Below, one piece after another: positions 25,928 through 61,929 of a DNA stretch of 64,000 nucleotides (its first letter is position 1; each line of letters starts with the position of its first letter). The notes under the pieces are model-generated. The model was not told where the DNA came from. It saw only the letters and a program-made list of their open reading frames with translations, and made no database searches. Position numbers and translations under genes: made by a program. The DNA comes from Promethearchaeati archaeon SRVP18_Atabeyarchaeia-1 (GTDB lineage: Archaea > Asgardarchaeota > Atabeyarchaeia > Atabeyarchaeales > Atabeyarchaeaceae). Location: the NCBI GenBank assembly GCA_037308085.1, contig CP147779.1, positions 1,824,001-1,888,000 of the forward strand, written 5' to 3'.

Positions 25928-28381
25928 TTGAGAAGAGCTACGTATTCGCCGCCAAGGTTGGCTGCAGCTCTAACGCTCGTGGTGATTGCGTCCTCATTCT
26001 CTTTACCAGTATTCGCAGCAATGGCTGCGGCTCAGGGAACCGGAGCAACCGTAGATCCCGTAATAAGAATCTACCTCCTAGTTTCGCCAGGGGCCATGAG
26101 GCAGTCCACGGCACAGGTTATAGCGAACTGTCTGTCGGAACTTGGGATTCAAGCACAGGTGATCTCAGCTGACTGGGCAACTATCAATGGCAGAGCCTTC
26201 TCTCCGGCCCCCAGCATGATCGGGAAAACTTATGAGCAAGGAGGATTCGACGCTCTGCTCACAGACTGGCTCTACAATCCTGACCCTAATCCTTATCCCA
26301 TGTTTCACAGTAGCCAGATGCCTCCGACTGGGCAGAACTACTACCTCTGGAATAACACAATGGCGGACATGCTCGCGTATAACATGACAAGGGTTATTGA
26401 TCGCCCCACGCAGCTGCAATGCGCTGAGATGTGGCAGGAAGTAGCCTACGAGGAACTGCCCTCAATCGCAATATGCTATGACCATGGTGTAGTTGCATTT
26501 CGCCCGAACCTCAATTCGACGCCATTCGAAGCGTGTTACTATCCTAGGTGGCCGGGTGTTGAGCGCTGGAGCTTCACCTCATCTCCTATGACCAGCGTTA
26601 CCGTAGCCCAGCCTGGGGCGTGCCCGTATTGGGGGCTGACGCCGTACCATTCAAACTACTACAGTGACATGACTGGTTATGCCCCAATCTACGGCGAGCT
26701 TGGCGCCTACGGTCTGCTCATTAGGAGTCTGAACTCGACTTTGATGGAGCCTTACATGGCCTACGGGAACTACACGATGTCGCCTGATGGGAGAAACTGG
26801 ACTTTCTGGATACGACCTGGAATAAGGTTCCATAACGGCGAGGAACTTGATGCAAGAGACGTGGCGTACACCTACAGGTATGTCATGACTCCAAGCTGGA
26901 ATTCTGGCTGGTACTCCTACGTCAAGGGGATACTTGGAGCCAACAGTAGCGTGTATTGGGCAGGTGAATCAGGGACAGCGGGGGCAGGCATGCCGTACAA
27001 CAAGTTTGAGGTGCACTTTGACCTACCGCAGCCGTGGGCTTTCTTCCAGGCGGACATCGGAGGCGGGGCAATTCTTCCCGCGTCCGTAATTGTGAACTCG
27101 AGTAGTGGGATACCCGATCTCAGTGCCTGGAATCCGGACCCCGTAGGCACGGCTGGGTTTGTGTGGACATCCTTCGTCACTGGAAGCGCCGACACTTACT
27201 GGTACTATGCCAAAAACGGAACGCAGTACACGTCTTCGGGTCCGATGGGGGCGGGTCCATACAAGTGGAGCTCCTATGATCCAAACACGGAGACAGTGCA
27301 TCTCATCAAGTTCGATGGCTATTTCAATAAGGCCGTGCTGGAAGCTGGAGGAGCATTTGGAATAACCGACTACTACGTGAAGCACATCGCCGATGCCTAT
27401 TCAGCCATCTCATGCTTGACAAGCAACACGGTCCAAGTTCTCGATTCTAGCTATCACCTCGGAACATACGTAGCATCTTTAGATCCCGGCTGGAGCCGAA
27501 TAATCTCGTATCAAGGATACCAAGTGACAGAGCTGGGCTTCAACATGCGCCACCCAATCTTGGGCACAGGGCTGGGTACCCCCTTAGGTATAACCAATGC
27601 AAGTATGGCGGCTGAGGCAGCGAAGCACGTCAGACATGCACTTGAGTACTTAATCCCAAAGGACCAGATAATCTCGTCAATCCTAAACGGCTATGGCGAG
27701 CCTGGCCTTACGCCGCCTATTATGAGATCAATGCCAGGATTCAACTACGCCATTACCCCACGCAACGGTACATTGTCGAATGTCAAGGTCCTCGCTATGA
27801 ACGAGTTGGAGGCTGCGGGATACACGTTTATACAGGGACAAGGATATTGGCCGAATTATGATCTCCTTATTATTACGATATCTCTTGTCAGTATAACCTT
27901 CGCCTCGCTACTCCTCGGAGTGGGCCTAATACGAAGGAGAAGCAGGTTGAATGCCGACGTTCGAGGCCAAAGAGGAAACCCGCGCATTGAAACTCCAATA
28001 AGCCAGCCTGAAACGCTGGAACAGGGCGAACCGGAGAAACCAATTGAAACCTCGGTTCCACGACAAACTACAATGCCGTGCCCGCGTTGCGGAGCAATTT
28101 CCAGGGATCCTGCCGCGCAGTACTGCAAATACTGCGGGGCACTTCTGGGAGGCGGTTCAAGAGGGATGGAGATTCAGGCCAAGGGAAGAACATTCGCGCT
28201 AAAGGGCAGATGTATGGTTTGCAATCTTCCAATCGGGAAAAGTGATGAGGTTGTCTGGTGCCCCCGATGTGGAAACGCTGCGCACAGGACACACTTGCTC
28301 GAATGGTTGCACGTCAAAAGCTACTGTCCGGTCTGCCGCGCACCCATCAACCAAAGAGACCTTCTCTCTTCACGTGATTGA
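25928..28381 (+). CDS. Family 5 solute-binding domain + TM + cytoplasmic zinc ribbon + RING-like finger (SBP2, receptor-like)
   Basis: Paralogue of SBP1 up to ELEAAGY. Then TM LLIITISLVSITFASLLLGVGLI, RRRSR, CPRCG...CKYCG and CMVC-x12-CPRC-x4-H-x2-H-x3-W-x6-CPVC. Confidence 0.85.
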   Translation: MRRATYSPPRLAAALTLVVIASSFSLPVFAAMAAAQGTGATVDPVIRIYLLVSPGAMRQSTAQVIANCLSELGIQAQVISADWATINGRAFSPAPSMIGKTYEQGGFDALLTDWLYNPDPNPYPMFHSSQMPPTGQNYYLWNNTMADMLAYNMTRVIDRPTQLQCAEMWQEVAYEELPSIAICYDHGVVAFRPNLNSTPFEACYYPRWPGVERWSFTSSPMTSVTVAQPGACPYWGLTPYHSNYYSDMTGYAPIYGELGAYGLLIRSLNSTLMEPYMAYGNYTMSPDGRNWTFWIRPGIRFHNGEELDARDVAYTYRYVMTPSWNSGWYSYVKGILGANSSVYWAGESGTAGAGMPYNKFEVHFDLPQPWAFFQADIGGGAILPASVIVNSSSGIPDLSAWNPDPVGTAGFVWTSFVTGSADTYWYYAKNGTQYTSSGPMGAGPYKWSSYDPNTETVHLIKFDGYFNKAVLEAGGAFGITDYYVKHIADAYSAISCLTSNTVQVLDSSYHLGTYVASLDPGWSRIISYQGYQVTELGFNMRHPILGTGLGTPLGITNASMAAEAAKHVRHALEYLIPKDQIISSILNGYGEPGLTPPIMRSMPGFNYAITPRNGTLSNVKVLAMNELEAAGYTFIQGQGYWPNYDLLIITISLVSITFASLLLGVGLIRRRSRLNADVRGQRGNPRIETPISQPETLEQGEPEKPIETSVPRQTTMPCPRCGAISRDPAAQYCKYCGALLGGGSRGMEIQAKGRTFALKGRCMVCNLPIGKSDEVVWCPRCGNAAHRTHLLEWLHVKSYCPVCRAPINQRDLLSSRD

Positions 28382-28513
28382 GCAACAGCTAGGCAGCGTA
28401 ATCATTGAGAGACCTGCTTATTCTTCTCCCTCCAGGGACTTTCGACGTGTCCATGCCTGCGCAACTTGTCTGGGCCTCCATCGCTTCGAGAGAACATGCG
28501 TTGCGCCTTGTGC

Positions 28514-29500
28514 TCATGTAAGCACGCCTTGGCTGGGGCCGTTTTGACGCTTTTTGTGGCTTCTCTCTTTCCGGGGCGCGCCTTCACTGGGCTTACGTTG
28601 GCTTGGAAGCAATTGTCTCAGGCGGTCCCTTTGAACTAGCAGTTCGATTCTCTGCATTGCTCTTTCTACGTATTCCTGGTTGATGTCGATGCCTATGTAG
28701 TGTCTACCGGTGTTTCTCGCTGCAAGGCAAGTCGCACCTGCGCCGCAGAACGGATCCAAGACCACTTCTCCCTTGAAGGTGTAAAGCTGTATGCACCTGT
28801 AGGGCAGCTCGACAGGAAAAGGCGCCGGGTGCCCTACTTTCTCTGCAGACTCTGGCTGGAATTCCCATACGCTTTTGGTGTATTCGAGAAACTCCTCCTT
28901 TGATATTGTAGGTTCTCTTCCCTTGTCACTTCTCCCAAATTTGCCTTTAGAGAAGACTAGTATGTACTCGTGTGTGTCCCTTAGGGTTGGATTTGTGGGT
29001 GATAGCCAGCTTCCCCACGCGGTTGAGGCGCCAGCGCCTGCTCCCTTGTTCCATATGACTTCTCCTCTCATCAGGAAGCCGACTTCTGTCATGACGTCTA
29101 TCACGAACTTGTGGTACGGAATGTAGGGCTTCCTCCCAACGTTTGCGATGTTGATGCAGGCCCTGCCTCCATTGACGAGTACTCTGTTTGTCTCGGAGAA
29201 GACGCCTTTCAACAATCCTGAGTATTCCTCAAGGTTCAGGTCTTCGTCGTATTCCTTTCCCACATTGTAGGGAGGTGAGGTGACCATGAGGTGGACGCTG
29301 CTATCCGGGATACTGTTCATCTTTCTTGAATCGCTGCACAGAACTCTGTCCAGTACTTCGGGAGGAATAGGATTCTCAATTTCGGGTTCGCCCTCTGCTA
29401 CTTTTAGGTCTTGGTACAGCTTGCCCCGGTAGAATGGGGTGGAGTCGTGGCACTCCCTCTTCGAAACGCCGAACCTGCTAGTCTTGGTTCCCCTCACCAT
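28514..29500 (-). CDS. Site-specific DNA methyltransferase (N4-C/N6-A, beta class), orphan
   Basis: TSPPYN precedes HPAPFP and LDPFCGAG. No cognate endonuclease adjacent. Confidence 0.9.
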   Translation of the reverse strand: MVRGTKTSRFGVSKRECHDSTPFYRGKLYQDLKVAEGEPEIENPIPPEVLDRVLCSDSRKMNSIPDSSVHLMVTSPPYNVGKEYDEDLNLEEYSGLLKGVFSETNRVLVNGGRACINIANVGRKPYIPYHKFVIDVMTEVGFLMRGEVIWNKGAGAGASTAWGSWLSPTNPTLRDTHEYILVFSKGKFGRSDKGREPTISKEEFLEYTKSVWEFQPESAEKVGHPAPFPVELPYRCIQLYTFKGEVVLDPFCGAGATCLAARNTGRHYIGIDINQEYVERAMQRIELLVQRDRLRQLLPSQRKPSEGAPRKERSHKKRQNGPSQGVLT

Positions 29501-29787
29501 AAGGATCTTCCTCTCCACTCGTTGCCTAAGAACTCACTCTTCAATACCGATCAGATCAAGTTAGAATACAACACGTCTAAATGGTTATCTCTAGAGACTC
29601 TAGTGTAATATTCGTGAACAAGATTCGATCTAGCAAAAAGCAGAGCGTCTCGTGCCGCTCCTCTCAAAACGCCGGTCTCTGCTTGGATATCATGCTCTCG
29701 TTGATTTCCCGTAATGTCCGTCGTCCCACGTATTCTCCCCTTGCTTCAGCGAAGCCAGCTTCAGGTTAGATTATTACAGACGCGGGC

Positions 29788-30009
29788 CAGAAATCCCACG
29801 CCCTTTAGAGGTGGGGTGAGTGGGGGGTATGAATAGGGGAACGTGCATCTGTCTCTGCAATAGGCACGGTGCGTGCCGAATCTACGCCTGCGGAGATCGA
29901 AGCCGCTACTCCCGCGCCCCTGGGCGCGTCAACGGTGCCCCAAACGCGCCAAGGCAAGCTCGGTCCATGAGCCAGGAAGCCAACACGCCTTAGCGCGTTG
30001 GCAGCTCAC
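29788..30009 (+). mobile_element. Non-autonomous IS200/IS605-derived element (copy E2): left-end hairpin, omega-RNA-like scaffold, right end TCAC
   Basis: Left hairpin AAATCCCACGCCCTTTAGAGGTGGGG, internal ACGCCTGCGGAG, right end GAAG-CCAACACGC-CTTA-GCGCGTTGG-CAGCTCAC. Colinear with E3 and E1. Confidence 0.8.
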
Positions 30010-30029
30010 TACTCTAGGCAACTGTCACG
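29860..30029 (+). ncRNA. Putative TnpB omega-RNA/reRNA of E2 (scaffold to 30009, guide from flank TACTCTAGGCAACTGTCACG)
   Basis: Hairpins GGCACG-GTG-CGTGCC and CGCGCCC-CT-GGGCGCG plus the terminal hairpin. TATA-like TATGAATA at 29828-35. Boundaries approximate. Confidence 0.5.
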
Positions 30030-30093
30030 TGTCGCAGAAGCAATGTATTTATGGATGAAGCCGGATAGTTGTATTGCCGCAGTTACTTGTAGC

Positions 30094-32856
30094 ATGGGGG
30101 GAACGCAGTTAAAGCGCGGCGAGAAACGTTATGCGCTTCTATTTGTGGCAATGCTGATCTTCACTGGGCTCTCCTACCAATTCGCGCCCAGTACGTTGAA
30201 TACTTCTACTCCAAGCCAAGAGCACTCAAGAACCCCATACATATCTACGCCTTTCAGCATAACCCTGCTGGTACCTGGCGCAAACCCGCAGAGACAAGCT
30301 TGTGCGCAAATGGTCGCGGCCAACATGCGCAGCATTGGCATACAAGTGCAGACGGTCATTGCTTCATGGGCTCAGACCTACTCGAGGGTTCTGACGCCTG
30401 ATCAGTATGTGATTGGGAAGCCCTATGATCAGGGCGGTTTCGACATGGTATTTATTGGATATTCTCTGGGTCCCGATCCAGATCCATACACCTTGTACCA
30501 TAGCAGTCAATTCGCCCCGTATGGAGAGAACTACTACCTCTGGAACGACTCATACAACGATGCATTATGCTACAACATAACGCACACAGTCGACCCTACA
30601 CTGCGTCTTCAATACGTTCATCAATGGCAGGCATACGCCTACAACTGGACACCTAGCGTGGCAATCTACTACAACAAAGAGGTCGTAGCCTTCAAGCCAA
30701 GCTTCCAGTCAGCACCATTCCAGAATAACCACTATCCACAGTGGCCTGGCGTTGAGCAATGGAACGACACAGCGGGCTCAACCAACGTCAAGATTGCGCA
30801 GATAGGACCCTTTGGTCCTGGCGGTGGCCAGGGTCTTGTCCCATACCTTACCTCGTCATACTACGACTTGACGGCCTACGGACCCATCTTCGGTGAACTT
30901 GGCGGCTCTGGGCTGCTTACCAGGGATCAGTCAGGAGCAATGGTGCCCTACGTGGCTTACGGCAACTACACAGCTACCGCTGGCGGCAAGAACTGGACCT
31001 TTTGGATTCGTCCTGGAATCACGTTCCAGGATGGCACGCCACTTGATGGTAGGGACTTTGTCTATACGCTGAGATACGAGATGACTCCTGCCTCCGGATC
31101 GGCTGGAACAGGAGCGTACAACTACGTGTCTGGCATCATCTGTGGTTCCGATGTCAGCGCTGGTATAGCCGCGGGATATGGCAATAGAACTGTCTACTGG
31201 GCAGGTGAGCAGGGAACACCAGGAGCGGGGCTGCCGTTGAACTACTATGAGGTTCACGTCGACCAAGAAGCTGCTTGGGCTTACACGGAAAGTGACATCG
31301 GAGGTTCCTCAATCCTGCCGGCAGAAGCCTTGGTAAACAGCAGCGCAGGAGTCCCAAACTACAGCGCCTGGAATCCATCTAATGCGGCTGTCCTTCAAGG
31401 CACATCGTACAACACTGGAACGTCAGGAACTTATGTGTACTATGATAAAACAGGATCATTGATGCCGGCCAGATCTGGGCCTTTCGGTGCTGGTCCGTAC
31501 AAGTGGATTAGCTACGACACAGGCACGTTTACTTCGCATGAGCAGAAGTTCAGTGGCTACTTCAGACGCTCTGCCCTTGAGGCCGCGGGTGTCTACAGGT
31601 TCACGGACTACTACGTCGAGTACATCAGCAGCGCTACGGCTGCAATAGCTGCTCTGCAGTCTGGCAGTGTTCAGGTGCTCGACTCACAATACCACTTGGA
31701 GAACTTTTTGGGTTCACTCAATCCTTCGTGGTCTAGTCTGACTTCCTACGATGGGTACGGCGTACAGGAGATGGGTTTCAACTTGCGCCACCCGATCTGG
31801 GGGACTGGTCTGGGCACTCCTCTAGGTCAGTCTAATCCAGCGAGGGCAGCCGAAGCCGCTTGGCACGTTAGACGCGCAATAGAGTACCTAGTTCCGAAGG
31901 ACACCATAATCAAGCAGGTTCTCAATGGGTATGGCACATATGGTATCACAACCCCGATTACCCGGAAGACCCTCGGCTTTGACACGAGTATCGTTCCTCG
32001 CAACGAAACCGCACAGAGTGCAATCACTCTTGCTCAACAGGAGCTTGAGGCAGCGGGATATGTATTCCTTCAGCCACCGGGGACGATCTCAGACTTGGCT
32101 GCTGGCGCTTCAAGTGGCACTACGATTACTTTGACTTGGACGGCACCCGGCGCTCATGGCATGAGCGGAAACGTTTCGAGCTACGTTGTCAAATACTCCG
32201 AAAGTGGGGCCGTAACCCCCTCAAATTGGGGATCGGCAACAAACTTCACTCAATCGTGGAAGCCAGCCAAGAATGGAACCCTGGAAACGCGTACAATTTC
32301 TGGTCTTGACAACGCCACGAGATACTGGTTTGCAGTAGAAGCTTGCGACAACGCGACGCACTGCGGTGATGTTTCGAACAGCCCGATGGGTATAACTGCC
32401 GACGCTTTTCCGCCTGCCACAATAGCCGACCTCGCAGCGGGTAGTGCAACTGCTAACTCGATCACTTTAAGTTGGACTGCGCCTGGTGGGAATGGCACAC
32501 TAGGTAAAGCGGCCGGCTACGTAGTTAGGTATTCTACGAGCGGGCCCATAACCGTGGTCAACTGGGCATCCGCGAAGAACTATACTCAGTTTTGGGCACC
32601 TCTTCCCGCGGGCAGCATAGAGAGTCACGTGATAAATGGGCTAAACACAAGTACCCTGTACTGGTTTGCAGTCAGGGCGTACGACGGGGTTCCCAACATG
32701 GGCGGTGTCTCCAATAGTCCAAGCGAATCAACAACTAGCGGAGGAGGCGGGCAGCCTGGTGGAGCTCTTCCCATCGAAGTAATAGCTCTAGTCGGTATCG
32801 CAGGAGTGGCGGCAGCCACCGTGGCGGTGGCTATCGCGAAGATCCGCAAGAGATAG
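30094..32856 (+). CDS. Family 5 solute-binding protein with two fibronectin type III domains and C-terminal TM anchor (SBP3)
   Basis: Close paralogue of SBP1. Two repeats of (PPxT)IxDLAAG...ITLxWTAPG...YWFAV.A.D...VSNSP, then TM and KIRKR. The track start (29998) lies inside element E2. Confidence 0.85.
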   Translation: MGGTQLKRGEKRYALLFVAMLIFTGLSYQFAPSTLNTSTPSQEHSRTPYISTPFSITLLVPGANPQRQACAQMVAANMRSIGIQVQTVIASWAQTYSRVLTPDQYVIGKPYDQGGFDMVFIGYSLGPDPDPYTLYHSSQFAPYGENYYLWNDSYNDALCYNITHTVDPTLRLQYVHQWQAYAYNWTPSVAIYYNKEVVAFKPSFQSAPFQNNHYPQWPGVEQWNDTAGSTNVKIAQIGPFGPGGGQGLVPYLTSSYYDLTAYGPIFGELGGSGLLTRDQSGAMVPYVAYGNYTATAGGKNWTFWIRPGITFQDGTPLDGRDFVYTLRYEMTPASGSAGTGAYNYVSGIICGSDVSAGIAAGYGNRTVYWAGEQGTPGAGLPLNYYEVHVDQEAAWAYTESDIGGSSILPAEALVNSSAGVPNYSAWNPSNAAVLQGTSYNTGTSGTYVYYDKTGSLMPARSGPFGAGPYKWISYDTGTFTSHEQKFSGYFRRSALEAAGVYRFTDYYVEYISSATAAIAALQSGSVQVLDSQYHLENFLGSLNPSWSSLTSYDGYGVQEMGFNLRHPIWGTGLGTPLGQSNPARAAEAAWHVRRAIEYLVPKDTIIKQVLNGYGTYGITTPITRKTLGFDTSIVPRNETAQSAITLAQQELEAAGYVFLQPPGTISDLAAGASSGTTITLTWTAPGAHGMSGNVSSYVVKYSESGAVTPSNWGSATNFTQSWKPAKNGTLETRTISGLDNATRYWFAVEACDNATHCGDVSNSPMGITADAFPPATIADLAAGSATANSITLSWTAPGGNGTLGKAAGYVVRYSTSGPITVVNWASAKNYTQFWAPLPAGSIESHVINGLNTSTLYWFAVRAYDGVPNMGGVSNSPSESTTSGGGGQPGGALPIEVIALVGIAGVAAATVAVAIAKIRKR

Positions 32857-34125: not shown

Positions 34126-34147
34126 GACTATGCGATAGGGGTGCTGA

Positions 34148-37902: not shown

Positions 37903-38053
37903 TCACCACAGCCAGTGTCTTCTAACTCTATTAGTCTACACGAGTAGATATAGGCGAGGGCAAAATAGAAAAGACTATATTTATGGGGAACGAGATATTC
38001 CCTCCATCACAGTGCAAAACTTGTCCGGTCTGAGCGGAGGAGGTGCGGGAATC

Positions 38054-38941
38054 ATGTTCCTCGATCATGCAATTGCTCTAGGCTTATCTGCTGGGGCGGT
38101 CTCTTTGGCAAAAGCCACTTTGAGCATGCCTTCTTCTGTGGAAGGCGCCCCGTTTGACTACATTGATCCCACATTGGGGATCTTGCTGGTCATGTTCTTT
38201 ATCATGGTTATTTTCATAGCAGCCGTGGCTTCCACTGGTTCAAGAGCACACCACCCCCCATCTCCGCGAACTGAGGCTGTTACCTTTGAGAGACAGACCC
38301 CCGTGGGGCCTCTAATCGAGGCGCTGAAAAGCACTGACTGGGAAACCAGGCGGGAAATGGTGTCAGCGCTGGGAAACATTGGTGACGAGCGGGCAGTCAC
38401 CCCCTTGACAGGAGTTCTGCTTCACGATGAGAATAACGAAGTCCGGCAGGAGGCTGCCAGTTGGCTGGGGCATCTGTGTAGCGAACAAGCGGTTCCCTTT
38501 CTACTGAAAGTAGTTAAGGATTACCTCGATGGTGCCGAGAAAGCGGTCAACGTGGTTATAGCCTCGGCTATAGCCCTTGGAGAAATCGGGAGCCAAGAGT
38601 CACTCGCCACACTGAGGAGACTGGCAACAGATCTAGGACAGAAAGGCATGGTAGAAGATCTGAGGAAGGTCAATCATGCGACCAAAGATATACAACTGGC
38701 TAACGACTTAACTCGCAAGAAGTGCATCGTGTGCAATCTCCCACTTGGGAAAGATGAGCAGCTAGTTCAGTGCCCCTTCTGCAAGAACGTTGCCCACAAG
38801 GACCACATGCTGGACTGGCTAAGCGGAAGGGACTATTGCCCTACATGCAGAACAAAGGTCAAGGGATCACAGTTGATCCCCATTCAATTTCAGTCGCTCG
38901 CCGCCGTGCCGAAGTCTCGCCCCGTAAAAAGGAAGCAATAG
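38054..38941 (+). CDS. TM + HEAT repeats + RING-like finger protein
   Basis: TM LGILLVMFFIMVIFIAAVA, HEAT_2-like repeats (ALGNIGDERAV, VRQEAASWLG, ALGEIG), then CIVC-x12-CPFC-x4-H-x2-H-x3-W-x6-CPTC. Confidence 0.85.
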   Translation: MFLDHAIALGLSAGAVSLAKATLSMPSSVEGAPFDYIDPTLGILLVMFFIMVIFIAAVASTGSRAHHPPSPRTEAVTFERQTPVGPLIEALKSTDWETRREMVSALGNIGDERAVTPLTGVLLHDENNEVRQEAASWLGHLCSEQAVPFLLKVVKDYLDGAEKAVNVVIASAIALGEIGSQESLATLRRLATDLGQKGMVEDLRKVNHATKDIQLANDLTRKKCIVCNLPLGKDEQLVQCPFCKNVAHKDHMLDWLSGRDYCPTCRTKVKGSQLIPIQFQSLAAVPKSRPVKRKQ

Positions 38942-41086: not shown

Positions 41087-41662
41087 CTACCTCATGGCTG
41101 ATTGTACCAGACTCTTTGGCAGCTGATCCTCGAGCACCTTGTAGTCTAGCTTCTGGCTACATGATGGGCATAAGCCCCTCGTATGGATCCACACGAGGAA
41201 ATCGTCTCTGTGAGCGACAGTTCCGCAGTGAGGGCAGAAGACTATGGGATCGGTCTTTGTGATGCTCTCGTGGCAGACTGCGCATAGTAGTTCCTGGCTT
41301 ACCATTGACAGCCTCTTCGCCAGATCTAGGTCAGACTCCTCTTGAGAGGACGATGTCATCGCCCTTTGTGTTGCTTCGAGATTGGAGCCACAGTTGTGAC
41401 AGAAGCTTTGATCCTGCGATTTAAGGGTCGCGCCACAGTATGGGCAGAACCTCGTGCTGAAGCGGGTCACAGGCTGGGTCCTCCTCAAAGCGGGCGAGTT
41501 CGTCGCCACTCCTTCTCTCGATCGTGGTCTGCCATTCGTTGACACCGCTATCGAGACAACTAAGAGCGTAAAGAAGAGAATCGCTATCAAAGGACCAAGA
41601 ATGAGTACAGGAGCAAAGACAGCGAAATACATTCTTATGTCAGCCCTCCCTAAACCGAACAA
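41087..41662 (-). CDS. TM + zinc ribbon + RING-like finger protein
   Basis: N-terminal TM, FCPYCG...FCHNCG, then CAVC-x12-CPHC-x4-H-x2-D-x3-W-x6-CPSC. Confidence 0.82.
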   Translation of the reverse strand: MFGLGRADIRMYFAVFAPVLILGPLIAILFFTLLVVSIAVSTNGRPRSREGVATNSPALRRTQPVTRFSTRFCPYCGATLKSQDQSFCHNCGSNLEATQRAMTSSSQEESDLDLAKRLSMVSQELLCAVCHESITKTDPIVFCPHCGTVAHRDDFLVWIHTRGLCPSCSQKLDYKVLEDQLPKSLVQSAMR

Positions 41663-42262: not shown

Positions 42263-42982
42263 ATGGAAGCTGCAAATCCTACCGAATCGGCTCTGACAAT
42301 AAGTGAGGTCATCGGGCAAGTTCATTGTGGAAGGTGTCTGGTCCCAGTTCCACAGGAAGGAGAACTGATTTGGCCTCCGGAACAGATAGAGAAGCTTTTC
42401 GGTCTGTTGATGCAGGAACGCAGCATCGGGCAATTCATTTTCTGGAGTGTCGGTAGAGACAGAGTTGGGGACTACCATTTCTGCGACTTTTCCGGGGACG
42501 GCAATGAATGCCCGTGCGCGGTAGATCCAACATCAAGCATAGGAAGGCGAGACAACGTTGCAGTAGTAATTGACGGGAAGCGCCGTCTAGCCTCTCTCTA
42601 CGTTGGATTGGTGGGGCTGAACAAGGGATCAGTTCCCAGTCGAAGCCAGGAAACCGAAGATTTCTACCAGAGTAGAAAACTCTATCTGAATCTTCTTTCC
42701 GGAACGGGTTCGTCGCAAGAATGCTATGATTTTAGGTTCCTAACCGAATCCGAGGCATCTGCAAAAGATGAGAAAACCCTGTGGTTCAAGGTTGGGGGAG
42801 TATCATCCTTCACAAAGCCTGATGAGATAGGCAAGTGCCTAATTGAGAAGGGGCTGGGGAAGAACAAGTCTGCGGAAGAATGCCTTGTCAAACTTCAGCG
42901 CGTAATCGGTGAGAAGAGGTTACTACGCTGCGTCGTCGAGACAGACGAGGAAATAGGGAGAGTCTTCCTAATGTTCCTGTAG
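42263..42982 (+). CDS. Divergent stand-alone DUF262 (GmrS/ParB-like) domain protein
   Basis: PVPQEGELIW...QIEKLF...IGQFIFW, VIDGKRRLASL (canonical DGQQR) and KLYLNLL. Ends where the F.R.N motif is expected. Confidence 0.7.
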   Translation: MEAANPTESALTISEVIGQVHCGRCLVPVPQEGELIWPPEQIEKLFGLLMQERSIGQFIFWSVGRDRVGDYHFCDFSGDGNECPCAVDPTSSIGRRDNVAVVIDGKRRLASLYVGLVGLNKGSVPSRSQETEDFYQSRKLYLNLLSGTGSSQECYDFRFLTESEASAKDEKTLWFKVGGVSSFTKPDEIGKCLIEKGLGKNKSAEECLVKLQRVIGEKRLLRCVVETDEEIGRVFLMFL

Positions 42983-43009: not shown

Positions 43010-43654
43010 CTAGTCAAAGGTGAACGCTGAGGGGCAAAGCTTGTTCAGGTTGCAGCCTACGCAATTCGGTTTCTTTGCTGTGCATATGCTCCTGCCATGG
43101 GATATCAGGAGGTCGGTGATCCTCATCCACTTCTCACTAGGCACAAGATCCATCAGGTCCTTCTCTATCTTGTTGGGATCCTTTTTCTCCGTGAATCCGA
43201 GTCTCCGAGCGAGCCTGTAGACGTGGGTGTCCACCGCGATTCCGACGATGACGCCGTAGGCATTAGACAAGACAATGTTTGCCGTCTTTCGAGCTACTCC
43301 TGGGAGTTCAAGGATTTCCTCCATTGTTCTCGGCACTTCGCCGTCGAATTTTTCGATTAGCATTCGGCAACAGTTCTTTATGTTCTTCGCCTTGTTATGG
43401 TAGAAGCCTGTCGGCTTAATCTGCTTCTCCAGCTTTCTGAGATCTGCGTTCGCGTAGTCTTCTGGCGTCTGATACTTCTGGAAGAGCGTCGCGGTGACTT
43501 CATTCACCTTTTTGTCGGTGCACTGCGCTGAGAGTATGGTAGCCACCAGGATTTCCAGTGGATTCTTGAAGGTCAGCGCTGTCTTCGTGTCAGCATAATC
43601 TCTTTCAAGAAGGGAAATCACCTTCAACATTCTCGAATTCTGATCAAGATTCAT
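43010..43654 (-). CDS. nth: Endonuclease III
   Basis: LSAQCTD, LPGVARKTAN (HhH), VDTHV and C-x6-C-x2-C-x5-C. Confidence 0.96.
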   Translation of the reverse strand: MNLDQNSRMLKVISLLERDYADTKTALTFKNPLEILVATILSAQCTDKKVNEVTATLFQKYQTPEDYANADLRKLEKQIKPTGFYHNKAKNIKNCCRMLIEKFDGEVPRTMEEILELPGVARKTANIVLSNAYGVIVGIAVDTHVYRLARRLGFTEKKDPNKIEKDLMDLVPSEKWMRITDLLISHGRSICTAKKPNCVGCNLNKLCPSAFTFD

Positions 43655-44082: not shown

Positions 44083-45419
44083 GAAGCGGGGGAGGAATTG
44101 CCCTCCCACAGATGGTGGTTTTTAAGGCGGCATCACCAGTACTCTTTTTGGTGCGCAAGGGATGAGGAGAGAGGTCGTCAAGTCACTTGAACTGAACCTT
44201 CTCCCACTAACCTCAGCGAAGCAGGGCGAGCTCTCCCACCTCTTCTCCGAGTACACAGGCGCCGCCAACGAAGCCCTCACCACACTCAAGACCCAGAGGC
44301 CACCCTCAGAGACGCGGCTCCACCACCTAACCTACAAGAGGATCCGCGAGAGATCCAAGCTTCCTGCTCAACTCGTCTGCGCAGCGCGGCTCGACGCCTG
44401 GGCGAAGCGCAGGCAAACCATCACCAGCTTCAGGCACCTACCCATATCCTACAACGTGCCTAGGAGCGGCTCCCTTAAACAAACGAGGCGAGGCAACCCC
44501 ATCCTCAGCCCAGCCTCGCTAAACAGGCGCATCGGCCTCCGCGTAGCCAGGGATGGCGCGTGGCGAAGACTCACCCAGATGCTCTCAGACGAATGGGCCT
44601 TCACCGAGTTCAAGCTGCTCAACACGCACGCAGCAAGGGTCACCCTCAAGCGGCGCTTCCAAGTCGCCGAGCCTGGGCCGGGCCAGGCAGTGCTGGGCGT
44701 CGATGTGGGAGTCGGCACACTCGCTGCCATAACCATCTTCGACGCCCACGGAGTGGGGCAGCAGCTCTACTTTGGGCGAGACGTGTGGCAGGTGAAGCGC
44801 GACCTAGGTATACGCCGCTCGAAGCTCCAAGCTCACGCCTCTGCGTGCTCCAGGAGGGCGCGGCGCGCCCTCCGCAACCTCAGGGGCTACGAGCGCAGCT
44901 TCGACAAGACGAGGTGCTACCAGGAGGCGCACAGGATCGTCACCCTCGCCAAGCACTACAATGCAACGATCGCCGTGGAGGACCTCGACGGGCTGCATAG
45001 GACGAGGCTGAGCCGACGGTCCAACCGCAAGGCGAAGCGCATGCCCTATTCGGGGCTCAGGCAGGCGATCCAGGCGGTGGCCTGGCAGGAGGGCATCGAG
45101 GTGAGCCTCGTCAACCCGCGGTACACATCCCAGACATGCTCCAAGTGCGGCGCCAAAGGCGTGAGAAGAGGAGCCACGTTTAGTTGAGGTTGCGGGTTCA
45201 CCGCTAACGCGGATAGGAACGCGTCGGTGAACATCGCCAAACTGCTCTGGGAGCGGACTCGGCGGCGCGCCTCGGGGCGCGAAGCCGTGCCCAGTTTTCC
45301 CGGAGTGGGGCTGAGGTCAACCAGCCCGCCCCGTGCCATGAATCTTGGCAAGATGAGGCTCGCAGCCAATGCTTGCCACCACGAGCACAAGCCGCCTATC
45401 TCAATAGGTGGTAGTTGAC
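44083..45419 (+). mobile_element. IS200/IS605-family element carrying tnpB only (IS1341-like)
   Basis: Left hairpin GGGAGG-AATTGC-CCTCCC (~44089-44107). Right end CAAG-CCGCCTAT-CTCA-ATAGGTGG-TAGT-TGAC. GC-richer than flanks, no tnpA. Left boundary approximate. Confidence 0.8.
44162..45418 (+). pseudogene. tnpB: RNA-guided endonuclease TnpB interrupted by an in-frame TGA at 45185-45187
   Basis: RuvC-I LGVDVG, RuvC-II IAVEDL and YTSQTCSKCG. After the TGA the same frame continues GCGFTANADRNASVNIA (RuvC-III). Confidence 0.88.
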
Positions 45420-54780: not shown

Positions 54781-54830
54781 TCCTGAAATAGCGTAGGCTC
54801 GCTACTGGAAATTCCCACGCTCTTCGGTTA

Positions 54831-56529: not shown

Positions 56530-56837
56530 CCACTGCATAGTGGCATTCATGTGGGCGCCGTCAGCATTCCTCTTATCTCTTCGACATTCCCGATATCGGC
56601 ACAACATTGTCAGTGCACTAGAGGTTGGTTCGGACACGAAATGAGAAGGATGAGGAGAAGCATTGAAAATGCAAATCGTTCTTCCTCAAGGTGATACTCT
56701 ATTCTCCCCCTTTTTCCGCTGCAGAATAGAAAGGCTTTTTTGTAGGAGATTTAGAACTATGACTGTGTTTCAAGCTCAAAAGGGGAATGTCTGGAGAAAT
56801 ACAGGTTGCAAGAAATAGCCTTGGAGAATGATGGGTT

Positions 56838-57884
56838 TTGAGAATACTCAAAATGGAGAAAGATGATCTAGACTGTTTTCTCATGGAGACTAGCTCGTTT
56901 GGTGAGCTCTGGGGCCCCACAAAGGAAAATGGAAGGTTCCTCTATGGAAAAATCGAGGATCGAAGCCGACTATACCTAGGCAACGAGATACCGATGATTC
57001 CTCCGAAGAAGCTTTTTCACCCACCGACTTTCGACATGTTTCGTTTCTCTGAGAAGGGCTTCGAGCCTAACTATGATTGGATTACGAACAGGGTTTTGTT
57101 CGGAATCCATCCGTGCGACATTCACGGGCTCTTGATCCTTGACAAGTTCTTTGGTGGGTACCCCGCAGCTGATCCATACTGGGCTAAGGCCAGAGAGAAG
57201 ACCGTCATTGTAGGTTACTCATGTATTCCGTGTGAGAGCTGCCTATGCAAGTCGACTAATACCGACATCGTTCATGAGGGCTTTGACTTATTCTTCACGG
57301 ATCTCAAGGACTACTACCTTGTTTGGGTGGGGTCGAGCATTGGAGACGACATGACGAGAGTCAGGCAAGACATATTCGATGAGAAGGTGGAAAAAGAGGA
57401 CATTAAGAAGTACTTCGAGTGGCGCAAAGAGAGGGACAGCTGCTTCGTGAAGGGCTTCGAATTCAAGAACCTGCCTGACATGATGGAGCTCAGCTATGGT
57501 AGCAACGTATGGGAAGGCTTTGGGGACAAATGCCTCTCGTGTGGGCAATGCACAATGGTTTGCCCAACGTGTAACTGCTATGACGCCTACGACCAGATAG
57601 ACTTGAGCCCCGAACTCAAGGGTACACGCCGTCGACAGTGGGACTCGTGTATGTTCTCCGACTATTCCCTCGTTGCGGGCGGGCACAACTTCAGAGGCAA
57701 GCGCTCAGAGCGCCTGAAGCTCTGGTACACGCACAAGTTAAGAGCATATGAGGCGGAATTCGGAAAGCCTGGGAGCCCGTCATGCGTGGGTTGCGGGCGA
57801 TGCATACAGACTTGTCCAGTTGACATAAACGTTTTGACTGTTTCTGATGCACTCTTGACAGGGGAGGTGCCAAAACAAAAATGA
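56838..57884 (+). CDS. hydB: Group 3b hydrogenase (sulfhydrogenase) beta subunit, Fe-S
   Basis: GIHPCD, CLSCGQCTMVCPTCNC, GGHNFR and CVGCGRCIQTCP. Confidence 0.92.
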   Translation: MRILKMEKDDLDCFLMETSSFGELWGPTKENGRFLYGKIEDRSRLYLGNEIPMIPPKKLFHPPTFDMFRFSEKGFEPNYDWITNRVLFGIHPCDIHGLLILDKFFGGYPAADPYWAKAREKTVIVGYSCIPCESCLCKSTNTDIVHEGFDLFFTDLKDYYLVWVGSSIGDDMTRVRQDIFDEKVEKEDIKKYFEWRKERDSCFVKGFEFKNLPDMMELSYGSNVWEGFGDKCLSCGQCTMVCPTCNCYDAYDQIDLSPELKGTRRRQWDSCMFSDYSLVAGGHNFRGKRSERLKLWYTHKLRAYEAEFGKPGSPSCVGCGRCIQTCPVDINVLTVSDALLTGEVPKQK

Positions 57885-58738
57885 ACCGAAGCATTGAGAC
57901 CAAAACCGAGAGCCCTTACATCTCCGAGCCTTGCAAGATACTTCGGAGGACTGACCTTGCGGAAGGAGTGAGGCTATTCCAGATCCGGCCAATCAACGAA
58001 AACTCTACGCTAGCCGTTAACTATAGCCCCGGTCAGTTTGTGATGGTCTCGGTTCCAGGCATAGGCGAAGCACCAATCTCGATCTCCTCAACTCCCACAC
58101 GCCCCGGTACACTGGATTTGGGAATTAGGAATGTCGGAAGGTTGACCGAGGCCGTGTTGCAGCTGAAGGAGAAAGATACGATGTTTGTCAGAGGACCATA
58201 TGGTAACAACTTCAACATCTCAGCAATGGAGGGCAAGGATCTCCTTATAGTTGCAGGGGGAATCGGAATGATTCCACTCCGTTCAGTGCTACTCTTTTCA
58301 CTCGACAACAGAGAATTGTTCAAACGCGTAATTTTCCTGTATGGCGCCCGGACACCAGATGAAAGGCTCTTCAAGGCTGACTTGGACGAACTGAAAGAGC
58401 GAGGCGATGTCGAGTGTCACTACTCCGTCGACCGAGATCCTACTGGAAAGTGGCCTGGGAAAGTAGGTGTAGTAACCACGTTGTTCGCGGACCTGCAGGA
58501 TATCAACCCTGACAGCACATCAGTCGTAATTTGCGGTCCGCCGGTGATGTATACCTATGTCATTAGGGAACTGCTGAAAATCAAGATACCCAAGAACCAG
58601 ATACAAATGACCCTCGAAAGGAGGATGAAGTGTGGGATAGGGAAGTGCGGTCACTGTGCGGTAGACGAACTCTACGTGTGCAGAGATGGCCCCGTGTTCA
58701 CCTACTGGGATGTCATGCACTCCAGGGAGCTGATATAG
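57881..58738 (+). CDS. hydG: Group 3b hydrogenase gamma subunit (FAD/NAD(P)-binding, 2Fe-2S)
   Basis: PGQFVM, RGPYGN, AGGIG, CGPPVM, ERRMKCGIGKCGHC and CRDGPVF. Confidence 0.92.
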   Translation: MNRSIETKTESPYISEPCKILRRTDLAEGVRLFQIRPINENSTLAVNYSPGQFVMVSVPGIGEAPISISSTPTRPGTLDLGIRNVGRLTEAVLQLKEKDTMFVRGPYGNNFNISAMEGKDLLIVAGGIGMIPLRSVLLFSLDNRELFKRVIFLYGARTPDERLFKADLDELKERGDVECHYSVDRDPTGKWPGKVGVVTTLFADLQDINPDSTSVVICGPPVMYTYVIRELLKIKIPKNQIQMTLERRMKCGIGKCGHCAVDELYVCRDGPVFTYWDVMHSRELI

Positions 58739-58753
58739 AAGGAGGAAATACTC

Positions 58754-59557
58754 ATGGTAAAGAAAGAGCAAAGCGCAAAACCCAAGGTGGGAATATACGA
58801 ACTCACAGGATGTTCAGGTGAGCAGCTCATCTTTCTTCACAGCGAGGAGCTTCTGCTTGACCTTGTCAAACTGATCGATCTTAAGGTCTGGGTCATGGCA
58901 TCCAGCGGACCAGAGATAGATGATGTGGATGTTGCCCTAATCGAGGGCTCATGTAGCACAGAGCAAGATGCAGAACGCCTGAAAGAAATAAGGAGCCGCG
59001 CCAAGAAACTCGTGGCCATGGGCGACTGCGCCTGCTACGGTTGCATCCAGGCGCAATCCGCGGCTGACGGACAGTACCTAGAGAGACTGAAGCAAGTCTA
59101 CGGAGACTCGCCCATAGTGAAGATTAGAAAGCCAGTCGAGGCACAGCCAGTCGATGCCATTGTCAAGGTTGACTACTACCTGCCGGGATGCCCAATTAAC
59201 GCGAGACAGACCTTCGCCTTGGTTACGAGACTCGTAAGAGGATTCCAGCCTGAAAACTCGAGGTTCCCAGTCTGCATGGAATGCAGATTCAAGGATAACG
59301 ATTGCATGCTATACAACGGCAAATTCTGCCTGGGCCCGATCACTCTGACGGGCTGCGGCGCGGTTTGCCCCTCAATGAACCTGCCCTGCGTGGGCTGCTT
59401 TGGGCTCAACGAGGACGGTAATCTGGCGGCAGAGGTCAAAAAGCTGGAAGAGAACGGATACAAGAAGGAGGACATCATCAGGAGAATAAGGGTCTTCGGA
59501 GGGGCGAAAACTGCTAAGACCATACAGACAATGCTACAGGAGGGAGCCAAGAAGTGA
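58754..59557 (+). CDS. hydD: Group 3b hydrogenase delta (small) subunit
   Basis: LTGCSGE, EGS, GDCA, PGCP, VCMEC and CLGPITLTGCGAVCP. Confidence 0.92.
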   Translation: MVKKEQSAKPKVGIYELTGCSGEQLIFLHSEELLLDLVKLIDLKVWVMASSGPEIDDVDVALIEGSCSTEQDAERLKEIRSRAKKLVAMGDCACYGCIQAQSAADGQYLERLKQVYGDSPIVKIRKPVEAQPVDAIVKVDYYLPGCPINARQTFALVTRLVRGFQPENSRFPVCMECRFKDNDCMLYNGKFCLGPITLTGCGAVCPSMNLPCVGCFGLNEDGNLAAEVKKLEENGYKKEDIIRRIRVFGGAKTAKTIQTMLQEGAKK

Positions 59558-60873
59558 AGAGATCAAACGGAAATATCGAGATCGAGTACCTACCCAGAAT
59601 AGAGGGACATGGAGCTATCACCGTTGAATTGGACGAGAGCGGCGGCGTTGGAAATGTCAAAGTAGATATACCGGAAGCCCCACGCCTTTTCGAGGCCTTG
59701 GTCAGAGGTAAGACCCCAGATGAGGACCTGAACATGGTTCCTAGGGTATGCGGCATATGTTCATTCAGCCACAAATACGCGGGAATCCGCGCCTTCGAGA
59801 AAGCCCTAGGTGTCACCCCTTCAGAAAAAGCCATCGCGCTTAGAACACTACTCCACCTGTCCGAAACACTGCAAAGCAATGTCCTCCACGTCTTCTTCCT
59901 CTCCCTCCCAGATCTACTCGGCTACCCTAACGCCATAGAGATGGCGAGCGACTACAAGGACGCCGTGCTGGGCGCCATGAAGATGAAGGGCTTCGCCAAC
60001 AAGATCATGGAGATAGGCTCAGGTCGATTCGTCCACGGCGAGAACCCCGTAATAGGAGGCTTTGGAAGATACCCCACGGACCAAGAGCTGGCTCCTCTGA
60101 AGAGTATCTCCCAGGAGCTAATCCCACAAGCCGAGAAAGCAGCAGAAATGATCGGCGAAATGGAAATACCGGTATTCCCGGAGCGGGATACGACATTCAT
60201 GTGCCTCAACCCGCCGACGGGCGAATATGGTCTCGTCGGCGACAACGTCCTTATCTCCGACGGGAAAGAAATCCCAGTAGAGAACTACAAGCAGCTGACC
60301 AACGAGCGAGTCGTGTCACACTCATTCGCAAAGCGCTCCCGGTACAATGGAAAACCATTCACCGTCGGCGCAATCGCCAGAATCAATCTGCTGGGTGACC
60401 GCCTACAAGGAGTCGCCAAGAAGTACTACGAAAAGTACTACAGCGGACGGTGGAAGAAGAACCCGATGTTCAACATCCATGCCCAAGCGCTCGAAATCCT
60501 ATGGACCCTACAGGCAGTCTACCCCATCGTGGATGCGATTGCGGAGGCAGAAGAACCAGAAGAGCCTATTGCCAAGAGGACTAAAGCGACCGGCAAGGGA
60601 TCAGGCGCCGTCGAAGCTCCAAGAGGCATACTATACCACCACTACGAAGTGGAGAACGGACTCATCAAGAACTCAGACATCATCACTCCAACAGCGCAGA
60701 ACCTGGACGACATAGAGGAATTCATCAAGGTCACAGCAGCGAACCTAATTAGCAGTGGAGACAACGACGACATACAAGCCAAACTTGAGATGGTGGCGAG
60801 AGCCTTCGACCCATGCGTCAGCTGCTCGGTGCACCTCGTAAGAAAGCGGAGTGAAAAGCATCATCAACGATGA
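59554..60873 (+). CDS. hydA: Group 3b [NiFe] hydrogenase alpha (large) subunit
   Basis: RIEGHG, L1 RVCGIC, EAPRG, and L2 DPCVSCSVH followed by a cleavable-type tail. Confidence 0.95.
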   Translation: MKRSNGNIEIEYLPRIEGHGAITVELDESGGVGNVKVDIPEAPRLFEALVRGKTPDEDLNMVPRVCGICSFSHKYAGIRAFEKALGVTPSEKAIALRTLLHLSETLQSNVLHVFFLSLPDLLGYPNAIEMASDYKDAVLGAMKMKGFANKIMEIGSGRFVHGENPVIGGFGRYPTDQELAPLKSISQELIPQAEKAAEMIGEMEIPVFPERDTTFMCLNPPTGEYGLVGDNVLISDGKEIPVENYKQLTNERVVSHSFAKRSRYNGKPFTVGAIARINLLGDRLQGVAKKYYEKYYSGRWKKNPMFNIHAQALEILWTLQAVYPIVDAIAEAEEPEEPIAKRTKATGKGSGAVEAPRGILYHHYEVENGLIKNSDIITPTAQNLDDIEEFIKVTAANLISSGDNDDIQAKLEMVARAFDPCVSCSVHLVRKRSEKHHQR

Positions 60874-60890
60874 TGAAACCATTCGTGAGA

Positions 60891-60938
60891 GAAGAAAAGT
60901 TGACGAATGACCCTCTGGGTCAAGTCAACGTTTTCTTT
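60891..60938 (+). terminator. Long hairpin 3' of the hydrogenase operon
   Basis: GAAAAG-TTGAC-GAA-TGACCC-TCT-GGGTCA-A-GTCAA-CG-TTTTC, followed by a pyrimidine run. Confidence 0.5.
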
Positions 60939-61227
60939 CCCATTCTTCCACATTATGCTTGAATGCCATAATTGGATCTATATTGAATAGAACTGTTCCT
61001 TTCTGTGGTGCCGACAGGCGGGGTGGGACATAAGTTGCCATACATACCTCTTCCTTCTCCAGTACTAGGCACATTTCTGTTGTTTGGTGGAATATTCCTG
61101 CTAATCCTTATGCTCGCATTTCGCAGTAGTTCTTTGGAGCATCTTCTTATCAACCTGGCAGCGATTGTCTTAGGAGTCCTGCAATCAGACTGAATTCCAT
61201 GGAGCTAGAGGAAGAAGGTGGACCGAC

Positions 61228-61929
61228 TTGAGAAATGCTATGATGGTTCCCCATTCAGAAGTTCCTCAGCTTGGTGAGACACGCGATGACAAACTTGCCC
61301 CTACTCTTGGTATCATTGTCCTTCTCATTCCCATCTTGTTTGGAATAATAGTGACCGTCATCGGGCTTGTGGGCTGGAGTCAGGGAGGGGATATCGGTTT
61401 CCAATTTGGTCTTTTGGTTATGATAGGTGCTCTGATTACTGTGTGCTCTCTCGGCGTGTTCGTTGGACCCATTCTCAGAATAAGGCGCACCCAGGAAAGA
61501 TACAGGCTTAACACAAGGCTTTACGAGGAGCAGAAGCCCCACATCAATGACCGGTACTGCGTATACTGCAACTACGATATCGGTATCTCCGGATCGAGAT
61601 TCTGCCCAAACTGCGGGGCGAGCCTAATAACGATAAGGGCAGGTACTGACATCGCCGCCATTCGAAGCAAGGTAGCAGTAAATGTGAGCCCGGTATCGGT
61701 CTCCGAGACCCTGGGAACCTGTCCAATCTGCAAATATGATATTCTGAGAAGCGACCCAGTTGCATCATGCCCCTACTGCGGGACCCTTGCTCACAGAGTT
61801 CACCTTCTGGAGTACTTGCATGTTAAGGGAGACTGTCCTTCCTGCGGAAAACGTTTGAGCGAAAAGGAAATCAAAGAGCACCTAGCAAGAGCGGAGACAC
61901 GAATAGGATCTAAGAAGAGAGTGGGTTGA
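61228..61929 (+). CDS. 2TM + zinc ribbon + RING-like finger protein
   Basis: Two TM segments, YCVYC...FCPNCG, then CPIC-x12-CPYC-x4-H-x2-H-x3-Y-x6-CPSC. Confidence 0.85.
   Translation: MRNAMMVPHSEVPQLGETRDDKLAPTLGIIVLLIPILFGIIVTVIGLVGWSQGGDIGFQFGLLVMIGALITVCSLGVFVGPILRIRRTQERYRLNTRLYEEQKPHINDRYCVYCNYDIGISGSRFCPNCGASLITIRAGTDIAAIRSKVAVNVSPVSVSETLGTCPICKYDILRSDPVASCPYCGTLAHRVHLLEYLHVKGDCPSCGKRLSEKEIKEHLARAETRIGSKKRVG

Follow-up and report, generated by a model that had tools for sequence, protein, structure and literature searches.

Four genes in a 64,000-nucleotide stretch of the chromosome of Promethearchaeati archaeon SRVP18_Atabeyarchaeia-1 (contig CP147779.1, positions 1,824,001 to 1,888,000; hereafter the window) encode proteins of dissimilar make-up that all end in the same arrangement of cysteines and histidines. 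What is this terminal domain, and what does an Asgard archaeon do with it? We consider it likely that the four genes, numbered 1 to 4 along the window, belong to a family of 28 genes that encode ubiquitin-ligase (E3) adaptors of the RING type. In the mechanism that we propose, the RING, lying in the cytoplasm, would dock the genome's single canonical ubiquitin-conjugating enzyme (E2) charged with its single ubiquitin, using a Val or Ile between the first two ligands (C1 and C2), a Trp, Tyr, or Phe on the central helix, and an invariant Pro after ligand C7, and the variable N-terminal module would set the place or the substrate. Solute-binding, PPC, beta-propeller, and CarboxypepD_reg modules would do so facing outward across a transmembrane (TM) helix, and HEAT repeats or arrestin domains would do so in the cytosol; the membrane-tethered half of the family would put ubiquitin on membrane or membrane-proximal proteins. 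That family members bind zinc and the E2 and act as ligases is inferred, as are their substrates and any signalling role of the extracellular domains.

Identity and fold of the terminal domain

A six-frame regular-expression scan of the window found exactly four matches to the strict pattern C-x2-C-x12-C-x2-C-x4-H-x2-[H/D]-x3-[W/Y]-x6-C-x2-C, and 200 codon shuffles of the window produced neither this pattern nor a loosened version. The four domains, which are 33–43% identical in pairwise comparison, align with identical ligand spacing and no indels, and the last knuckle of each is C-P-x-C; an initial sequence-only reading, which had pointed to four open reading frames (ORFs) ending in a single gap-free motif, was correct on this point. 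It had also expected further copies genome-wide, and a profile made from the four domains indeed retrieved 29 domains in 28 ORFs from the 2.81-Mb single contig, all 29 with the eight ligands at the same fixed spacing. Ligand 6 is His in 23 domains, Asp in 5, and Glu in 1. A search of 1.84 billion representative proteins yielded 687 matching clusters at E ≤ 1e-10. Of the 150 that match best, 146 retain the exact spacing, 126 have the domain at the C terminus, and 94 have at least one TM helix.

An AlphaFold model of the gene 1 domain, computed from a 29-row alignment, has a mean predicted local distance difference test (pLDDT) value of 89.8, and all of its best Foldseek matches are RING or U-box ubiquitin-ligase domains, the leading PDB matches being 3lrq, RNF24, EL5, Rad18, RNF165, Ring1b/Bmi1, and RNF38 (query template-modelling score, TMq, 0.63–0.80). 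VIA-align, which is independent of Foldseek, returned the Prp19 U-box, HRD1, Slx1, SEA/GATOR2, RNF146, TRAF6, and RNF4 at Z scores of 6–7.7 that are middling in absolute terms, in a list that is uniformly RING or U-box. Root-mean-square deviations of the model from its top RING and U-box matches are 1–2.9 Å over 46–60 residues. Comparison of the family profile with sequences gave the same class of protein, with RNF24 (1.5e-10), Arkadia (2e-8), and EL5 (3e-8), as well as RNF126 and RNF165. The Pfam zf-RING_2 model (PF13639, gathering threshold 27.3 bits) hits 27 sites in the genome, all within the family and 17 over the cut-off; genes 1 and 2 pass, at 29.6 and 27.3 bits, and genes 4 and 3 fall just under, at 25.6 and 24.9 bits. 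In 14 control prokaryote genomes, zf-RING_2, UQ_con, and ubiquitin found no match; together with a published Caldiarchaeum case discussed below, these genomes make up our evidence from outside Asgard archaea.

When the family is aligned with the RING-H2 domains of RNF24, Arkadia, and EL5, the second Cys of its C-P-x-C falls on C3, with an extra Cys three residues earlier, and the RING-H2 H4 position is occupied by a non-ligand residue. H5 and C6 then correspond to the family's first His and its His/Asp, and there is an exact match at the Trp and the closing C-P-x-C. A cross-brace with these ligands would have Cys2-His-His/Asp at site 1 and Cys4 at site 2. The sequence-only reading had set this ligand pattern apart from RING-HC, RING-H2, and RINGv, and it does differ from all three, but it is not new: the srfp E3 of Caldiarchaeum subterraneum departs in the same way, with C3/H4 shifted and an extra Cys termed 'C3B' (PMC5654768). 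As modelled, then, the domain is an archaeal srfp-type RING finger that would hold two zincs in a cross-brace, and not a PHD finger or a new class of zinc finger.

The PHD finger deserves a closer look because ligands 1–5 follow a PHD-like spacing (C-x2-C-x12-C-x2-C-x4-H), relatives are annotated 'RNA-binding Zn-ribbon' or 'RpoP', and there are weak Pfam matches to C1 and zinc-ribbon models. A PHD-like or other non-RING finger would read peptide, lipid, or nucleic acid and be unrelated to ubiquitin. We regard this as highly improbable, since profile and fold searches alike rank RING E3s first, and the PHD entries, from a fold related to RING, stand far down the lists (KMT2D at E 0.0097 in the profile search, PHF7 at Z 5.5 in VIA-align); PHF7 is moreover itself an E2-binding ligase. 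The second half of the domain, H-x2-H-x3-W-x6-C-P-x-C, is the RING-H2 signature, and a Cys at ligand 6, as the PHD finger has it, is found in 0 of the 29 copies and 0 of 156 metagenomic domains. With the operon context and E2 co-occurrence described below also opposed to it, we dropped the PHD reading on profile, fold, and context taken together; the two folds are related, and ranking alone would not separate them. A PHD or other non-RING fold was an outcome that the sequence-only reading had named as refuting it, and model and profile favor RING and U-box E3s instead.

Many members carry a zinc ribbon ahead of the RING. A ribbon-linker-RING model of gene 3 has pLDDT values of 74–89 in the ribbon, 92–95 in the RING, and 48–60 in the linker, with a predicted template-modelling score (pTM) of 0.48, and the low linker pLDDT and pTM suggest that the ribbon is probably tethered flexibly to the RING. 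A composite Zn-RING fold such as that of LNX1 was considered and found no support, since ribbon and RING were not modelled as one rigid unit.

Ties to the ubiquitin system

The genome encodes one canonical E2 (UQ_con, 107 bits), one ubiquitin (Ub) gene, one operon ubiquitin-activating enzyme (E1), and a single E2 variant of the UEV type joined to a Vps23 core. A cluster at genome 328.5–333.3 kb runs UEV-Vps23 (−), JAB (+), coiled-coil protein (−), RING (+), Ub (+), E2 (+), E1 (+), in which the RING gene is an 83-aa paralogue of our family (genome 330916–331167, +; zf-RING_2 29.6 bits) and the UEV-Vps23 gene (genome 328467–329315, −) is divergent from the JAB-RING-Ub-E2-E1 cluster. The Vps23 fusion is an ESCRT-I-like ubiquitin reader, and its placement matches that reported in other Asgard classes. 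This reader, encoded beside the ubiquitin operon, would provide a plausible downstream route for ubiquitin-marked proteins; its adjacency, together with the arrestin-RING fusions described below, makes ubiquitin-dependent handling of membrane proteins attractive as that route.

The reading frame of the operon E2 (genome 331788–332255, +) extends upstream of its first ATG/GTG/TTG into a conserved helix 1 (ILSQNEYWARL... versus MLSDEDFWARL... in orthologues), for which the only plausible start is ATT. Gene callers would clip this E2 by ∼17 residues, with loss of part of the RING-binding face. A complex prediction that paired the E2, including helix 1, with the RING gave no answer, with a score of 0.09, and counts neither for nor against binding.

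Ubiquitin machinery and the domain go together across the phylum, a check that the sequence-only reading had proposed. Among 400 same-phylum Asgard genomes, the RING profile (E ≤ 1e-8) was found in 297 and UQ_con (E ≤ 1e-6) in 295; both were present in 293 and neither in 101, so that 394 are concordant, and the six discordant genomes are all 61–79% complete. Per-family tallies of RING and E2 are near-identical, and the families without the RING are also those without E2, one of them with ∼80 sampled genomes; this may be Thorarchaeia, a group reported to have no ubiquitin system, although that is a guess on our part. Across these 400 genomes we did not see the domain common where E2 is absent, the outcome that would have spoken against the sequence-only reading. 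Seven families include at least 25 genomes in which the best RING match lies within ∼1.2 kb of the best E2 match.

The residues through which a RING would meet its E2 are also retained. In Caldiarchaeum, srfp is needed for ubiquitylation in vitro, and its I30Q, W58A, and R69A mutants are impaired, R69 being an Arg that favors the closed form of E2~Ub and is needed for efficient chain building (PMC5654768). The equivalent of I30, just before C2, is Val in 25 and Ile in 4 of our 29 domains, that of W58 is Trp in 25, Tyr in 2, and Phe in 2, and Pro follows C7 in 29/29; all three positions are kept in nearly all 156 metagenomic domains. The aromatic residue (W, W, W, and Y in genes 1 to 4) aligns with that of RING-H2 domains, and the remark in the sequence-only reading that it occupies the E2-contact position of RING E3s agrees with this alignment.

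Several findings weigh against ligase function throughout the family. Our main reservation is that the 'linchpin' Arg/Lys directly after C8, the counterpart of srfp R69, is present in only 4/29 copies (three Arg, one Lys) and in 29/156 metagenomic domains, so that many copies may be weak, regulated, or non-catalytic; Gly is the commonest residue there, often followed by Lys or Arg, and within the window genes 1 and 2 have Arg and genes 3 and 4 have Ser and Gly. The neighbors of the four window genes are unrelated to ubiquitin, that is, these genes are not encoded in the operon. The proposal sets 28 candidate E3s against a single E2 and a single ubiquitin gene, a ratio that is possible. The genomes are related and the co-occurrence has phylogenetic structure, which leaves far fewer than 400 independent events, and we attach no statistic to it. 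Finally, the sequence and fold matches of the domain include chains of GATOR2 (WDR24, WDR59), SEA, and IFT-A (WDR19), that is, solenoid proteins with a C-terminal RING, and the C-terminal RINGs of GATOR2 and IFT-A act as structural glue and are not known to act as ligases.

The last point has a direct parallel in our HEAT-RING members, which look like such solenoid-plus-C-terminal-RING proteins; it leads, with the linchpin missing from 25/29 copies and the lack of a ubiquitin-gene neighborhood in the window, to the alternative that the RING fold is a non-catalytic, zinc-stabilized interaction or oligomerization module for the N-terminal parts, and that only the small operon copy is a real E3. 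We judge this unlikely. A scaffold would not need the three E2-contact positions that every one of the 29 copies and almost every metagenomic domain keeps, nor does it fit with the way domain presence tracks E2 across Asgard genomes. Many active eukaryotic RINGs moreover have no Arg directly after C8, and RNF24, the best match, has Asn there. We thus retain the modular E3 family as the preferred explanation, with the reservation that individual copies may differ in activity.

Family architectures, window genes, and turnover

The sequence-only reading had described a modular, lineage-expanded membrane ligase system. Modularity stands. Membrane-tethered receptor-like members comprise SBP_bac_5-TM-ribbon-RING, PPC-TM-ribbon-RING, FG-GAP beta-propeller-TM-RING, and CarboxypepD_reg-TM-ribbon-RING proteins; judged from sequence, all of these would have a receptor topology, with the binding domain outside and ribbon and RING inside. 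The remaining architectures are TM-HEAT-RING (two proteins, plus one 659-aa HEAT-RING), Arrestin_N/C-ribbon-RING (three proteins), one protein with two RINGs, several small ribbon-RING proteins, and two stand-alone RINGs of 70 and 83 aa. The three arrestin fusions (Arrestin_N/Arrestin_C(Spo0M)-zinc ribbon-RING, 433–464 aa) lie in tandem on the minus strand at genome 2026880–2031514 and have a narrow distribution, with 12 relatives found, some of them arrestin-only. A zinc ribbon of the form C-x2-C-G...[F/Y]-C-x2-C-G stands ∼35–45 residues ahead of the RING in ∼20 members. Predicted TM helices occur in 14/28 members, so 'membrane-tethered' fits only half of the family; Lys/Arg enrichment behind the last helix is found in 12 of these 14.

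Lineage expansion needs a different wording. In our Asgard census, which scored at most 16 copies per genome, some families have 1–3 copies and several others 10 to at least 16; the largest sampled family has 1–3, and the smallest genomes have a single gene of ∼83–98 aa. Such strongly differing copy numbers indicate that expansion was recurrent and not peculiar to Atabeyarchaeia: the domain is pan-Asgard, and no single lineage-specific burst produced it. A search with a 9-row sub-alignment for one narrow peptide pattern retrieved only close Asgard relatives and is uninformative on other phyla. In a tree of the domain, which has 60 columns and an unresolved backbone, so that duplication order is not readable from it, the four window copies fall in different subgroups and are thus old paralogues, not local duplicates. 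The Asp-ligand copies (support 86/87) and the Tyr/Phe copies (90/87) each group together, which points to inherited states and not decay. Three metagenomic relatives of 452, 745, and 755 aa have RING profile matches in 4–9 separate stretches and may be multi-RING or ribbon-rich proteins.

In the window, the claim that all four fingers lie behind TM helices agrees with hydropathy analysis, which predicts at least one helix upstream of the finger in each protein, and with an enrichment of Lys/Arg just behind the last helix that places the finger in the cytoplasm. The N-terminal modules proposed for them (solute-binding protein plus zinc ribbon, HEAT repeats, zinc ribbon, and two TM helices plus zinc ribbon) are likewise those found by Pfam and TM prediction. 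The ORF bounds needed partial correction: the longest ORFs of genes 1 and 2 begin at 25898 and 38012, not at 25928 and 38054.

Gene 1 (25898–28381, +) encodes 827 aa, comprising a signal/TM helix (aa 21–39), an extracellular SBP_bac_5 domain (aa 284–647, Pfam E = 7.4e-41), a second TM helix (aa 657–675) directly followed by RRRSR, a zinc ribbon, and the RING, an order for which the predicted topology is receptor-like. The ribbon, C-x2-C-x11-C-x2-C, was located by regular expression at 28079–28135 (+) and is matched by Pfam DZR and Zn_ribbon_3; the RING (28211–28336, +) has ligands C,C,C,C,H,H,C,C, Trp as the aromatic, and Arg after C8. Gene 1 is the middle one of three SBP_bac_5 paralogues in a row (23646–25712, 25898–28381, and 29998–32856), the third of which has an extra fn3 domain; the TM-ribbon-RING tail is on the middle paralogue only. 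No ABC permease or ATPase is among the scanned neighbors of the three. In Candidatus Atabeyarchaeum deiterrae Atabeyarchaeia-2, the best SBP match is a 688-aa protein without the TM-ribbon-RING tail.

Gene 2 (38012–38941, +; 309 aa) has a TM helix at aa 55–73, HEAT repeats at about aa 98–207 (HEAT_2, Pfam E = 3.3e-20), and a RING (38723–38848, +) with His as ligand 6, Trp as the aromatic, and Arg after C8. It also matches Pfam Zf_2nd_IFT121 (E = 4e-4), and, with the two other HEAT-repeat proteins that have a terminal RING, resembles eukaryotic solenoid-plus-C-terminal-RING proteins. Gene 3 (41087–41662, −; 191 aa) has a TM helix at aa 20–38, a zinc ribbon found by regular expression at aa 73–91 (41390–41446, −), and a RING (41159–41284, −) with Trp as the aromatic; it belongs to the Asp-ligand subgroup and is the single window copy that the sequence-only reading had rightly singled out for an Asp at ligand 6. 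Gene 4 (61228–61929, +; 233 aa) has two TM helices (aa 29–47 and 61–79), the second directly followed by RIRRTQERYR, then a zinc ribbon found by regular expression at aa 111–129 (61558–61614, +) and a RING (61720–61845, +) with His as ligand 6 and Tyr as the aromatic, which makes it a member of the Tyr/Phe subgroup.

Conservation of the four genes is uneven. In a sister species gene 1 is intact at full length (816 aa, 61% identity), and the orthologue of gene 2 is 45% identical. Genes 3 and 4 have no 1:1 orthologue in the sister genomes and match at 35–45% identity through the ribbon-RING part only, which indicates rapid turnover of the N-terminal parts. In addition, 24 of the 28 family genes lie within 1.675–2.358 Mb, ∼24% of the chromosome, partly as arrays (eight genes at 2154–2180 kb; four genes at 2025.9–2031.5 kb). 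This uneven conservation, copy numbers that differ among Asgard families from 1 to 16 or more, and the crowding into one chromosomal region are reminiscent of a fast-evolving conflict or immunity system like vertebrate TRIM. In such a system the variable sensors would recognize viruses or mobile elements, with ubiquitin-dependent restriction set off by the RING, a scheme compatible with E3 chemistry. Defense and mobile-element genes do lie near two of the RING genes, at 28514–29518 (−), 42263–42982 (+), 43010–43654 (−), and 44162–45187 (+); PADLOC matches these four neighbors to a type II DNA methyltransferase (8e-127), a HEC-05/GmrSD_N-like protein (6e-45), a type II nicking endonuclease (2e-22), and a TnpB/Cas12f-like protein (9e-24). 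We nevertheless see little likelihood of an immune role. The four RING proteins match no PADLOC defense model beyond generic HEAT repeats, the neighborhood evidence comes from two loci only, and the extracellular solute-binding, PPC, and propeller domains face outward, not toward intracellular invaders. A family of E3 adaptors whose N-terminal modules set place or substrate remains our favored explanation.

Novelty and comparison with known systems

Eukaryotic ubiquitylation draws its specificity from hundreds of RING E3s that work with few E2s. The archaeal ubiquitin systems in the papers that we found are compact operons with a single small RING protein. Such operons with a small RING E3 are already known and validated in vitro (PMC5654768; bioRxiv 10.1101/2023.07.25.550441), and a RING finger domain is listed among the eukaryotic signature proteins of Atabeyarchaeia (PMC11291895). 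In the Asgard literature searched, coverage of which was incomplete, we came across no account of large RING families with multi-domain, membrane-anchored, or arrestin-fused members, and the scale and modularity reported here, with ectodomain-TM-RING, HEAT-RING, and arrestin-RING proteins, seem to be undescribed. What we add are single-pass and receptor-like forms of the srfp type, 28 paralogues against one E2, and a direct test of co-occurrence. Database entries name relatives 'RNA-binding Zn-ribbon', 'RpoP', or 'hypothetical', and because of such names surveys of eukaryotic signature proteins will miss genes of this family.

The findings suggest that the logic of few E2s and many modular E3s already exists in Asgard archaea, with half of the family at the membrane. 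A bolder and more tentative proposal, which we put forward as a possibility short of an even chance, is a eukaryote-style ubiquitin hierarchy in which a single E1 and a single E2 serve dozens of modular E3s, with receptor-like single-pass proteins and arrestin-RING fusions marking membrane proteins for UEV-Vps23/ESCRT. If it is true, ubiquitin-dependent sorting or signalling at membranes and the transmembrane RING ligase design are older than eukaryotes. The cytosolic fragments of 60–130 residues, with the cognate E1, E2, and ubiquitin of the same genome, are small expressible targets, and could date the origin of substrate-specific and membrane-linked ubiquitylation.

The closest known system is that of Caldiarchaeum srfp. 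The family RING is alike in having the C3/H4 region out of register with an extra Cys, and shares with srfp the hydrophobic residue between C1 and C2, the conserved Trp, and C-P-x-C; the 83-aa paralogue is located in the same type of JAB-RING-Ub-E2-E1 operon, here beside UEV-Vps23. Unlike srfp, the four window proteins and 23 others are encoded outside the operon, have lengths of 115–827 aa, and bear zinc ribbons, TM helices, and domains of a sensor or scaffold kind; most have no Arg after C8, and there are 28 genes per genome as compared to one. Helarchaeia clusters, in which the operon RING E3 ubiquitylates UEV-Vps23 (bioRxiv 10.1101/2023.07.25.550441), have the same layout as the ubiquitin cluster of this genome.

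Among Pfam families, Prok-RING_1 (PF14446, gathering threshold 29.1 bits) resembles the first half of the domain, where C-x2-C ... C-x2-C-x4-H matches profile positions ∼3–33 of 54; nine scanned members score 29.1–39.6 bits, gene 3 among them at 39.6, whereas the other three window proteins are under the cut-off (20.7–22.8 bits) and the second half of the profile was never matched. The eukaryotic RING-H2 domains (RNF24, Arkadia/RNF111, RNF165, EL5, RNF126) are homologous in sequence (E down to 1.5e-10) and have the same predicted fold, and share the second half H-x2-[ligand 6]-x3-W-x6-C-P-x-C and the E2-contact positions. The family is nonetheless outside the RING-H2 subclass, which is defined by His as ligand 4 and Cys as ligand 6: it has no His ligand 4 but a Cys ahead of C3 in its stead, so that the second site is Cys4, and its ligand 6 is His, Asp, or Glu and not Cys.

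For whole proteins, the nearest eukaryotic counterparts are those that work in a similar way. The PA-TM-RING proteins (RNF13, RNF128) and ZNRF3/RNF43 have an extracellular or luminal binding domain, a single TM helix, and a cytosolic finger of the RING-H2 type, a layout shared by gene 1 and by the members with PPC, propeller, or CarboxypepD_reg modules, and the RINGs of RNF13 and ZNRF3 are among the matches of the family profile. The ectodomains here are SBP_bac_5, PPC, and FG-GAP, with no PA domain, and most family members have an extra zinc ribbon between TM helix and RING; the comparison is one of how the proteins would work and not of membership, there being no evidence for common descent of the whole architecture. 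The alpha-arrestin (ART) adaptors offer a second comparison. Eukaryotic ARTs recruit a separate HECT ligase, Rsp5/NEDD4, to membrane cargo through PY motifs, whereas in the three family members that fuse Arrestin_N/C to ribbon-RING the RING is attached directly, so that a predicted cargo adaptor and a predicted ligase are joined in one chain.

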